From the IMG/VR virus record IMGVR_UViG_2563366802_000013, positions 1 to 44,878 of that record: 44,878 bases of DNA; one strand, given 5' to 3'. This document shows positions 35,190-36,804 of the stretch, piece after piece. The first letter of the stretch is position 1. Each line of letters begins with the position of its first letter. Position numbers and translations under genes: made by a program. The stretch is from a virus. Taxonomy: Duplodnaviria; Heunggongvirae; Uroviricota; Caudoviricetes. The notes under the pieces were generated by a model. The model saw only the letters and a program-made list of their open reading frames with translations, did no database searches and was not told where the DNA came from.

Positions 35190-35732
35190 TCACATAACCC
35201 CCAACATCGAAGTGACCATAGCCATCAGCGGCGCGGTCAGATCCGGGTCGACACGGAACATCTCTACAATCCCCTCACTGAGTTCCTTGAGCTTCTGGTG
35301 ACGCGGGGCGTTCATCGCAACGGCCACTTTCGCCTCGCTCGTTTCCTTCTCAAGTCGAGCTAAGCGGGACATGAAACTATCCTCGGGAAGAAGTCGATGG
35401 CGATACTCCAGAGGCAGCACGGCCATGATTGCGGGCGTCAGCTGGCGCACGTTCTCGCGGTACTGCTCGGAGTCGAAGCGATTATCCAGGAAGCGAAACA
35501 GTTTCTGGCGCGCCCGGCTGATGTCTTCCGGAAAGCTGATGGCGGTACCGCCCTGCTCCCGGTATTCGTTGATGATCAGCGCCGAAACGACGTCCTGATT
35601 GTCCAGCGCCGACGACCATGCCCGGACCGCATCGCGGATCTTTTCGTGGTCTGGCGCCGCTTTAGCTTGAGCGCGGTTTATCACCGCTCCCTGGTGTATT
35701 CCGGTATTGTGTTGATACGCAAGTGAATGCAT
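35190..35732 (-). CDS. YdaT-like regulatory protein (CII-position)
   Basis: 180 aa; resembles Rac prophage YdaT as I recall it (QKLFRFL, LTPAIMAVLP blocks); directly downstream of the Cro/YdaS-like gene. Confidence 0.55.
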   Translation of the reverse strand: MHSLAYQHNTGIHQGAVINRAQAKAAPDHEKIRDAVRAWSSALDNQDVVSALIINEYREQGGTAISFPEDISRARQKLFRFLDNRFDSEQYRENVRQLTPAIMAVLPLEYRHRLLPEDSFMSRLARLEKETSEAKVAVAMNAPRHQKLKELSEGIVEMFRVDPDLTAPLMAMVTSMLGVM

Positions 35733-35761
35733 TGCTTTCCCTTTCGTGGTTAGGGCCGCCG

Positions 35762-35989
35762 TTAAGCGGCATGGTTCTCTGGGTGTGGAAACAGGTCGGG
35801 AAGATCAGGTCGAATTTCGTGTGCCTTAATCTCGCCACCAGTAGCGTTTACGATGGCTGTTACTTTTTCCGGAGATACGGAACCACCGTTAAGCCACTTG
35901 TGAACCGCTGGCTGGCTAACGCCGCAAATATCTGCGAGTCGCTTCTGGCTGCCAACGATTTCTAAAGCTCGTTGAATAACTTTGTTCAT
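35762..35989 (-). CDS. cro: Cro/YdaS-like HTH repressor
   Basis: 75 aa; HTH SQKRLADICGVSQPAVHKWLNG; divergent from cI across the operator region. Confidence 0.75.
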   Translation of the reverse strand: MNKVIQRALEIVGSQKRLADICGVSQPAVHKWLNGGSVSPEKVTAIVNATGGEIKAHEIRPDLPDLFPHPENHAA

Positions 35990-36022
35990 GGATTTTACCT
36001 ATCCGATTACTGGATTAATGAA

Positions 36023-36093
36023 AAGATAACCCAAGTTATGACCATTGTCCATAACCTTTGTTATTTTACTCTGCATAACCTGAGTTATATATT
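36023..36093. promoter_or_regulatory. OR operator region with divergent pR/pRM: three 14-bp palindromes ATAAC-N4-GTTAT
   Basis: Sites at 36026-36039 (ATAACCCAAGTTAT), 36051-36064 (ATAACCTTTGTTAT), 36075-36088 (ATAACCTGAGTTAT), spaced 24-25 bp; candidate pR -35 TGGACA / -10 TATCTT on the minus strand; candidate pRM -10 TATATT just upstream of a nearly leaderless cI ATG. Confidence 0.6.
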
Positions 36094-36099
36094 GGCGCT

Positions 36100-36804
36100 A
36101 TGAAAACATTCGCAGATCGACTTAACGCGGCTATGAGAGCCGCAGGCATATCCCAAGGGCAGCTGGCTGAGAAAGTCGGCATATCTCAACCTGCAATTCA
36201 GAAAATGACATCAGGCAAAACCACAGGCAGCCGTAAGATGGTTGAGCTTGCTCATGCATTGAACGTGCGTCCGGAATGGCTCAGTTCGGGCATAGGCTCA
36301 ATGCAGGACGAAGGACGCAAGGACTCCGCTATCCCACCAGAATCGGAATGGGGTAAAGTTGACGCTTGGGATAGCAAAACAGATCTGCCAGATGACGAGG
36401 TCGAAGTGCCATATCTGAAAGACATAGAACTTGCGTGTGGTGATGGTTCCTGCTTGGAAGATGACTATAACGGATTCAAACTTCGTTTTGCGAAGTCTAC
36501 CCTTCGTAAGGTGGGAGCCCAGAAAGATAGCGTGCTGTGCTTCCCGGCATCAGGAAATAGCATGGAGCCCATGATCCCGGAAGGGACGACGGTCGCCATC
36601 AACACGAACGACAAAAAGATCGTTGATGGCAAGGTTTATGCAATAAGCCAGGACGGATGGAAAAGGCTAAAATCCATTTATCGTGTGAGTCCTACCCGCA
36701 TCGTGATTCGCAGCTTCAACAGTGAAGAGTACCCTGATGAAGAAGCGGATATCGAGAGCGTAGAGATTATTGGTCGCATGTTCTGGACATCTACTATCTG
36801 GTAA
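36100..36804 (+). CDS. cI: CI-type prophage repressor (N-terminal HTH, C-terminal S24 LexA-like autopeptidase)
   Basis: 234 aa; HTH ISQGQLAEKVGISQPAIQKM; S24 catalytic block GNSMEP and Lys in ...DGWKRLK... Confidence 0.9.
   Translation: MKTFADRLNAAMRAAGISQGQLAEKVGISQPAIQKMTSGKTTGSRKMVELAHALNVRPEWLSSGIGSMQDEGRKDSAIPPESEWGKVDAWDSKTDLPDDEVEVPYLKDIELACGDGSCLEDDYNGFKLRFAKSTLRKVGAQKDSVLCFPASGNSMEPMIPEGTTVAINTNDKKIVDGKVYAISQDGWKRLKSIYRVSPTRIVIRSFNSEEYPDEEADIESVEIIGRMFWTSTIW

Follow-up and report, generated by a model that had tools for sequence, protein, structure and literature searches.

The window analysed here is a whole stretch of 44,878 bp of viral DNA (Caudoviricetes; IMG/VR record IMGVR_UViG_2563366802_000013, positions 1 to 44,878). 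The interval 35990-36099 is the exact 110-bp intergenic gap between two divergently transcribed genes, deduced cro and cI, and carries three copies of the palindrome ATAACNNNNGTTAT (ATAAC-N4-GTTAT), while further copies form a second cluster on the far side of cI. Analysis of the sequence and of related loci indicated that these palindromes are, with a probability of about 0.85, the operators through which CI and Cro control the genetic switch of a temperate lambdoid phage whose immunity is of the HK639 type. The two genes, the operators of the right (OR) and left (OL) clusters and the promoters, the latter deduced from a sigma-70 consensus scan of the window sequence, are as follows.

35762-35989, minus strand: cro, 75 amino acids, YdaS/P22_Cro-type helix-turn-helix (HTH), recognition helix S25-Q-P-A-V-H-K-W32
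36100-36804, plus strand: cI, 234 amino acids, 434-like HTH in residues 1-66, recognition helix S29-Q-P-A-I-Q-K-M36
36026-36039: candidate OR1, ATAACCCAAGTTAT, exact; its ATA end gives the TAT of the pR -10 TATCTT on the minus strand
36051-36064: candidate OR2, ATAACCTTTGTTAT, exact; shares its first base with the start of the pR -35 and is directly followed by the pRM -35
36075-36088: candidate OR3, ATAACCTGAGTTAT, exact; covers the pRM spacer and ends on the first base of the pRM -10
37661-37674: candidate OL1, ATAACTAAGGTTAT, exact; overlaps the pL -10 in the same way as OR1 overlaps the pR -10
37636-37649: candidate OL2, ATAAATTAGGTTAT, one mismatch, at position 5; its final T also begins the pL -35
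37615-37628: candidate OL3, ATAACTTATGTGAT, one mismatch; 21 bp from OL2
36051 to 36023, minus strand: predicted pR, -35 TGGACA (36051-36046), 17-bp spacer, -10 TATCTT (36028-36023)
36065-36093, plus strand: predicted pRM, -35 TTTACT (36065-36070), 17-bp spacer, -10 TATATT (36088-36093)
37649-37677, plus strand: predicted pL, -35 TTGCCA, 17-bp spacer, -10 TATCTT

The rightward protein was assigned as a CI-type repressor because it carries the Pfam domains HTH_3 (1.4e-10) and Peptidase_S24 (4.9e-17); its C-terminal domain is a phi80-like S24 autopeptidase with Cys113-Gly114, Ser154 and Lys188. Cro matched YdaS_toxin (8.9e-17) and HTH_3 (5.4e-07), and its P22_Cro match, at 27 bits, was under the 30.2-bit cut-off. 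The PHROG label of CI and Cro alike is 'transcriptional repressor'. Beyond cro lie a YdaT-type cII-like gene and replication genes. The features by which a lambdoid switch is recognised were found together at this locus, that is, the divergent gene pair, a repressor with HTH and S24 domains, a small HTH Cro, three OR dyads over pR and pRM, and an OL cluster over pL.

Candidate operator sites and the predicted promoters they overlap

A window-wide motif search detected four exact copies of the palindrome, OR1, OR2, OR3 and OL1, against 0.05 expected from shuffled sequences, and none of 100 shuffles reached four. When one mismatch was allowed seven sites were obtained against 0.81 expected, six of which sit in two 60-bp clusters; the additions to the exact set are OL2, OL3 and one stray at position 6950, within an open reading frame (ORF) of 824 amino acids. 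At the two-mismatch level the extra sites were at background (15 found, 11.1 expected). Since these extras are at background and the one-mismatch stray is a single one, the window has no equally good copies scattered in coding DNA, which the original prediction had named as the observation that would speak against operators, and all four exact copies lie in OR or OL.

The centre-to-centre spacing of the OR sites is 25 and 24 bp and that of the OL sites 21 and 25 bp. The three 14-bp palindromes that had been described as lying 24-25 bp apart between cro and cI were thus recovered as exact sites starting at 36026, 36051 and 36075. Before the early-left operon two sites had been proposed; both are present (37636 with one mismatch, 37661 exact), but the count missed the third site at 37615-37628. 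A further dyad at 35976-35989, ATAACTTTGTTCAT, has two mismatches and one perfect half-site, overlies the cro start codon and lies at a distance from OR1 of exactly 50 bp, or 2 x 25. Being indistinguishable from background or from coding constraint, it was not counted as a fourth OR site.

The 17-mer ATAACNNNNGTTATCTT occurs exactly at only two places in the window, 36039 to 36023 on the minus strand, towards cro, and 37661-37677 on the plus strand. The identical overlap of operator and -10 hexamer claimed for pR and pL therefore holds to the letter, the last three bases of OR1 and of OL1 being the first three of the respective -10. At the other end, one base is common to OR2 and the pR -35, and likewise to OL2 and the pL -35. 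Transcription from pR is predicted to start near 36016, which would give a cro leader of about 27 nt with GGATAGG as the ribosome-binding site. The strongest sigma-70 match of the region, TTTATA-17-TATAAT (10/12), was found at 37640 to 37612 on the minus strand and points leftward out of OL, over OL2 and OL3. In phage HK639 this match faces a small leftward gene, HK639_46, which is absent in the window, so that here it would read antisense into the terminator of the cI operon described below.

Conservation of the sites and of the recognition helices

A scan of IMG/VR for the triple-site pattern retrieved at least 119 contigs. A CI-type ORF starts just past the third site in 116 among the at least 119 contigs listed, and a Cro homologue was found on the opposite side of the triple site in nearly all of them. 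The recognition helices in these contigs read (S/T)QPA(I/V)QK in CI and (S/T/K)QPAV(H)KW in Cro, even at 40-60% protein identity. The conservation of the half-sites themselves is circular in this set because the query fixed those ten positions; a set of eight loci anchored on Cro, which is unbiased, and the helix-covariation set given below are free of that circularity.

The Cro-anchored loci were from Enterobacter bugandensis (100% identity), Hafnia, Kluyvera, Serratia, Xenorhabdus (two loci), Symbiopectobacterium and Natronospirillum (43%). All eight carry three sites with at most one mismatch in the cro-cI gap. The offsets of the sites from the cro ATG are 35/36, 60/61 and 84-86 in the seven Enterobacterales loci and 23, 47 and 71 (24/24 spacing) in Natronospirillum. 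OL-type sites were also present in all eight, at 0.9-2.4 kb and on the far side of cI, with one site in both Xenorhabdus loci and two or three elsewhere.

Comparison of 57 distinct OR regions revealed that the 25/24 operator spacing is kept in 54. The OR1 centre (T/C)CAA is conserved across relatives and the OR2 centre CTTT in about 50 of the 57 regions, and the OR3 centre varies (C-N-N-R). In about 100 loci with enough flanking sequence the OL cluster recurs as OL1 followed by CTTT, OL2 followed by TGCC or TGAC, and often OL3 21 bp upstream. Almost all related loci have an exact OL1 with CTTT after it, nearly all relatives have A, T or G at position 5 of OL2, and OL3 is kept in about 45 related loci. 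Strays outside the clusters numbered 31 in 1.19 Mb, near background.

Analysis of the recognition helices together with the half-sites indicated that the two change in concert. In the window phage the helices of both regulators begin S-Q-P-A (SQPAIQK in CI, SQPAVHK in Cro), and the CI helix SQPAIQK goes with ATAAC..GTTAT in the window, in HK639 and in PA28. The CI helix AQPTIWR goes with ATAGC..GCTAT or ATACG..CGTAT in phages 4A7, BTP1, Fraca and ASU11, and SQGAIQK with AATCC/AATAC..GTATT in AsXd-1 and YP3. The CI N-terminal domains of 4A7, BTP1, Fraca and ASU11 are 54-58% identical to that of the window phage and their 14-bp dyads occupy the equivalent cro-cI region; a homologous Cro is present in 4A7 and BTP1, and the dyads of 4A7 are at 25/25 spacing. 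These four phages differ from the window phage in helix and half-site, and they are therefore predicted to be heteroimmune to it. Phage LMessi was found to combine the helix SQPAIWR with mixed ATAAC..CGTAT sites.

The same operator class, with the helices SQPAIQK and SQPAVHK, was also identified in E. coli O157:H7 Stx1 prophages, namely PA28, SH2026Stx1 and the Stx1a-converting series; in PA28 (positions 2927-2989 of its locus) OR2 is ATAACAATTGTTGT, with one mismatch. The Stx1 phage H-19B was considered as a carrier of the class and rejected, its CI and Cro being unrelated and its sole one-mismatch site being at chance level and located elsewhere. The published work on H-19B operators does not cover this class, because the H-19B regulators are unrelated and the sites are absent.

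Immunity type and surrounding sequences

Window positions 35710-36290 showed 92.6% DNA identity to Escherichia phage HK639 (HM208537). Comparison with this phage, and with known immunity groups in general, placed the window in the HK639 type: Cro is identical over 75 of 75 residues, OR1, OR2, OL1, OL2 and OL3 are identical, and OR3 differs by two bases in its centre (CTCG vs CTGA). Residues 1-64 of CI are about 90% identical, the recognition helix S29-M36 is the same, and HTH residues 17-41 (ISQGQLA[E/D]KVGISQPAIQKMTSGKT) match except for E24D. The two phages also agree in pL and in how far pRM lies from the ATG. On these sequence identities the immunity type of the phage is HK639-like. The proposal that the palindromes define the immunity specificity of this phage thus held as regards the operators, but the specificity is not particular to it, being that of HK639 and occurring also in the O157:H7 Stx1 prophages.

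Outside this module the two phages diverge. The C-terminal domains of CI are about 25-30% identical, with Ala-Gly (SAGPG) in HK639 and Cys-Gly in the window, and this divergence could alter cooperativity, not site specificity, relative to HK639. Other genes lie between cI and OL, and the window lacks two features of HK639, a leftward gene beside OL and, after pL, a putL-like antiterminator RNA. The window CI is a natural chimera of an HK639-type N-terminal domain (about 90%) and a phi80-type C-terminal S24 domain (about 60%, ACGDG); its residues from about 61 to 233 are about 60% identical to phi80 CI, the ACGDG motif included, while phi80 differs in the N-terminal domain, in the Cro recognition helix and in its 19-bp operators. 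The contigs that carry the same operators fall into at least four classes of CI C-terminal domain, at 94-100%, 59-66%, 42-47% and no detectable match. The remainder of the window is a mosaic whose top match, Enterobacter phage CobraSix, covers only 36-44%. The phi80-like CI C-terminus and pL leader and this mosaic remainder point to an HK639-immunity module within a different lambdoid backbone.

Near-identity to 35762-36300 was found in one of 5,426 complete E. coli genomes, that of strain ET729, from sediment, which argues against E. coli as the usual host of this exact variant. An identical Cro is present in Enterobacter bugandensis, and by its sequence the phage is most likely from an Enterobacter-group host.

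Sequence alignment with 434 (PDB 1per, 2or1 and 3cro) revealed that the CI N-terminal domain matches 434 repressor residues 4-64 without gaps (1per, E 5.5e-9) and also 434 Cro (E 9.4e-8). Both systems have 14-bp operators, three of them in OR, and CI and Cro recognition helices that start alike. In 434, Gln28 contacts the first A of the ACAA half-site; Gln30 of the window CI aligns with it, and the first base of the half-site is also A here. The half-site, however, is ATAAC and not ACAA(G/T), the helix is Q-P-A-I-Q-K and not Q-Q-S-I-E-Q, and Cro is of the YdaS type and not, as in 434, a paralogue of CI. The imm434 specificity (ACAA(G/T)-N4-TTGT) was accordingly rejected for this phage, helix residues 2, 3 and 6 being P, A and K against Q, S and Q in addition to the different half-site.

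The arrangement resembles that of lambda in the divergent pR and pRM, the three operators, OR2 near -42 of pRM, OR3 over pRM, the three-site cluster at pL, the -10 placed for a start at the cI AUG, and the extra genes apparently co-transcribed with cI at the position of rexAB. It differs from lambda in that the operators are 14 bp and not 17 bp, are spaced 25/24 and not 24/23 bp, and are unrelated in sequence, and in that CI is an HTH_3 protein of the 434 branch.

Downstream of cI two further features were identified.

36819-37508, plus strand: orf229, hydrophobic signal-like N-terminus, at the position of lambda rexAB
37523-37549, plus strand: predicted intrinsic terminator of the cI-orf229 operon, GCCCCGC-AUU-GCGGGGU with a U-run after it

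No Pfam match was obtained for orf229, and its PHROG matches were solely to families of unknown function (phrog_2578 and phrog_2320). It is probably co-transcribed with cI and may be expressed in the prophage state; in HK639 its place is taken by three unrelated ORFs. The terminator, which lies just before OL, was missed by a consensus terminator scan and recovered by folding (-17.3 kcal/mol, z = -3.97, 0/200 shuffles as stable). Between it and OL a run of nine C residues (37561-37569) marks the left boundary of HK639 homology, which resumes at about 37581; this run may reflect a recombination junction or be a tract prone to slippage.

Beyond pL, window positions 37677-37754 (about 78 nt) shared 93.6% identity with the leader of phi80 pL, down to where the nutL boxA lies, with a boxA-like TGCTCATTA at 37742-37750. 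The leader also matched HK225 and Klebsiella KO-TP1, and its first 50 nt or so HK639; the phages that share it differ in immunity and in antitermination mechanism. A homologue of phi80 N and one of the HK639 putL RNA were sought in the window and neither was found. Folding gave the pL leader RNA no greater stability than shuffled sequence (z = +0.86), and a scan of the whole window against Rfam at gathering thresholds gave no family, so that no known RNA element, put-type included, explains either region.

Alternative readings and the proposed switch

The operator reading draws on four features apparent from sequence and comparison, namely the clustering of the sites, their overlap with the predicted promoters, their inheritance together with the CI N-terminal domain and Cro, and the covariation of helix and half-site. 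Several points weigh against it. The half-site positions of the triple-site contigs were imposed by the query, as stated above. One related locus (L106, CI helix SQVSIVK) and the Natronospirillum locus (L132, SQVAVHK) retain ATAAC-type sites with a different CI helix, and the helix-to-site code is therefore not one-to-one. The GenBank record of HK639 carries a 'putative pR' (positions 3297-3325 of the HK639 locus, minus strand) that corresponds to window 36034 to 36006, TTGGGT-17-AGTAAT, 17 bp downstream of the pR proposed here. Activation from OR2, looping between OL and OR, and the Cys-Gly cleavage site rest on analogy with lambda, 434 and phi80.

The promoter assignments were examined across the 57 OR regions. 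The pR -10 conforms to TATnnT in 55 (TATCTT in 48, the rest being TATGAT, TATATT, TATTAT and others) and the pR -35 is TGGACA in 41; for pRM, the -35 is TTTACT in 40 and the -10 is TAnATT in 53, with variation only at its least critical position. The spacers between the operators and the 6-7 nt 5' of the ATG are nearly unconstrained. Conserved hexamers amid free spacers are the pattern expected, at the level of sequence, of real promoter hexamers and of a leaderless start.

The cI ATG at 36100 lies 7 nt past the last base of TATATT, and the GGCGCT between them contains no Shine-Dalgarno sequence. Because the start was assumed to be 7 nt past TATATT, the predicted +1 falls on the A of the ATG; with +1 at 36100 the centres of OR2 and OR3 are at -42.5 and -18.5 relative to the predicted pRM start. 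Of the 57 regions, 40 have 11 nt between the end of OR3 and the ATG and 15 have 12 nt, and the distance from TATATT to the ATG is constant at 6-7 nt in 55, with neither conserved nucleotides nor a conserved Shine-Dalgarno sequence in between. The pRM transcript is thus predicted to start at the A of the cI ATG, or at most 1 nt from it, and to be leaderless as in lambda, in agreement with what had been suggested from the window alone. It is unlikely that the cI message instead starts further upstream, or comes only from pRE-type read-through, with TATATT being the A/T-rich edge of OR3. Four distant relatives with the same operators (L009, L080, L095 and L101) do have 35-45 nt, with purine-rich stretches, between OR3 and the cI start, and leaderless expression would therefore be a trait of the sub-family and not of the whole operator class. 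Within the 25/24 class, the constancy of TAnATT and of its distance to the ATG and the lack of a Shine-Dalgarno sequence argue against such a leader, as does a TTTACT -35 which, with its 17-bp spacer, abuts OR2 as in lambda pRM.

If pR were where the HK639 record annotates it, the operators would still be real, but the -35 TTGGGT would be inside OR1 and the -10 AGTAAT at 36011-36006, so that OR1 would block the -35 and not the -10, OR2 would be upstream of the promoter, and the likeness of the operator/-10 overlap at pR and pL would be a coincidence at pR. Beyond the annotation itself, which speaks for it, this placement appears improbable. In AGTAAT the A that is critical as the second base of a -10 (the -11 A) is missing, so that the consensus scan did not report this hexamer, and its columns are poorly conserved, while TATnnT at OR1 is kept despite sequence change. 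A start about 7 nt past AGTAAT would cut into the cro ribosome-binding site GGATAGG, and the 'putative pL' of the same record is identical to the TTGCCA-17-TATCTT of the window. The TGGACA-17-TATCTT promoter is favoured because of the poor conservation of the AGTAAT columns, the missing -11 A and the conflict with the ribosome-binding site, and the HK639 'putative pR' is probably misplaced.

That the palindromes are bound by one regulator only or by another protein, the other regulator using a different or longer motif, is very improbable: CI and Cro do differ in fold outside the HTH, and the sites of L106 and L132 persist beside a divergent CI helix, but S-Q-P-A-(I/V)-x-K is common to CI and Cro and kept in both across the family, both helices change together in 4A7 (CI AQPTIWR, Cro AQPTVWR), and the 110-bp region contains no second repeated motif besides the palindromes.

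With the palindromes taken as operators of both CI and Cro, the switch may work as follows. Dimers of CI and of Cro would each recognise the 14-bp dyad ATAAC-N4-GTTAT through a 434-like HTH. In the lysogen, by analogy with lambda and 434, CI on OR1 and OR2 would cover the -10 and -35 of pR and silence cro and the replication genes, and CI on OL1 and OL2 would cover pL. The lambda and 434 repressors activate their own promoter from about -42, and CI on OR2, next to the pRM -35 at -42.5, could likewise activate pRM. OR3 lies over the pRM -10, where CI at high level, or Cro after induction, would shut off cI, OR3 being the presumed first target of Cro. The two three-site clusters, 1.6 kb apart, could also loop. 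The CI of phi80 is cleaved at Cys-Gly; since the C-terminal domain is phi80-like with ACGDG, induction is predicted to proceed through RecA-stimulated self-cleavage at Cys113-Gly114, catalysed by the pair Ser154 and Lys188.

No published description of these operators was found in the literature searched, which did not include the HK639 genome paper. The HK639 passages of PMC12315714 concern Rec modules and Chi sites and not the immunity region. The operators of the Stx phage of BAA2326 (PMC5977221), which contain 'ATAAC' strings, were set aside as weakly symmetric sites of a different repressor. The GenBank record of HK639 annotates promoters and no operators, and the sites given here thus extend the public annotation.

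This is a lambdoid switch of the textbook kind, on the 434 branch, and it leaves the understanding of how such switches work unchanged. The HK639-like assignment predicts which phages would be excluded by lysogens and supplies exact operator and promoter coordinates. Related repressors with altered helices and dyads could provide orthogonal repressor/operator pairs and a test set for HTH specificity. The operator class is also present in the O157:H7 Stx1 prophages, where repressor-operator affinities influence toxin induction.

A broader proposal, which we put forward tentatively and hold to be somewhat less probable than its converse, is that ATAAC-N4-GTTAT together with the S-Q-P-A helix marks a large immunity class with undescribed operators, extending from Enterobacter, Klebsiella and E. 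coli, with O157:H7 Stx1 prophages such as PA28 among its members, to Xenorhabdus and Natronospirillum, in which the same DNA-binding module and 25/24 spacing have been joined to CI C-terminal domains of at least four unrelated kinds (the HK639 type, the phi80 type and two more). If this is true, the phages of the class would hold a natural 'code' from helix to half-site (SQPAIQK to ATAAC, AQPTIWR to ATAGC, SQGAIQK to AATAC), and the module for cooperativity and induction would be freely swappable on a constant operator scaffold.

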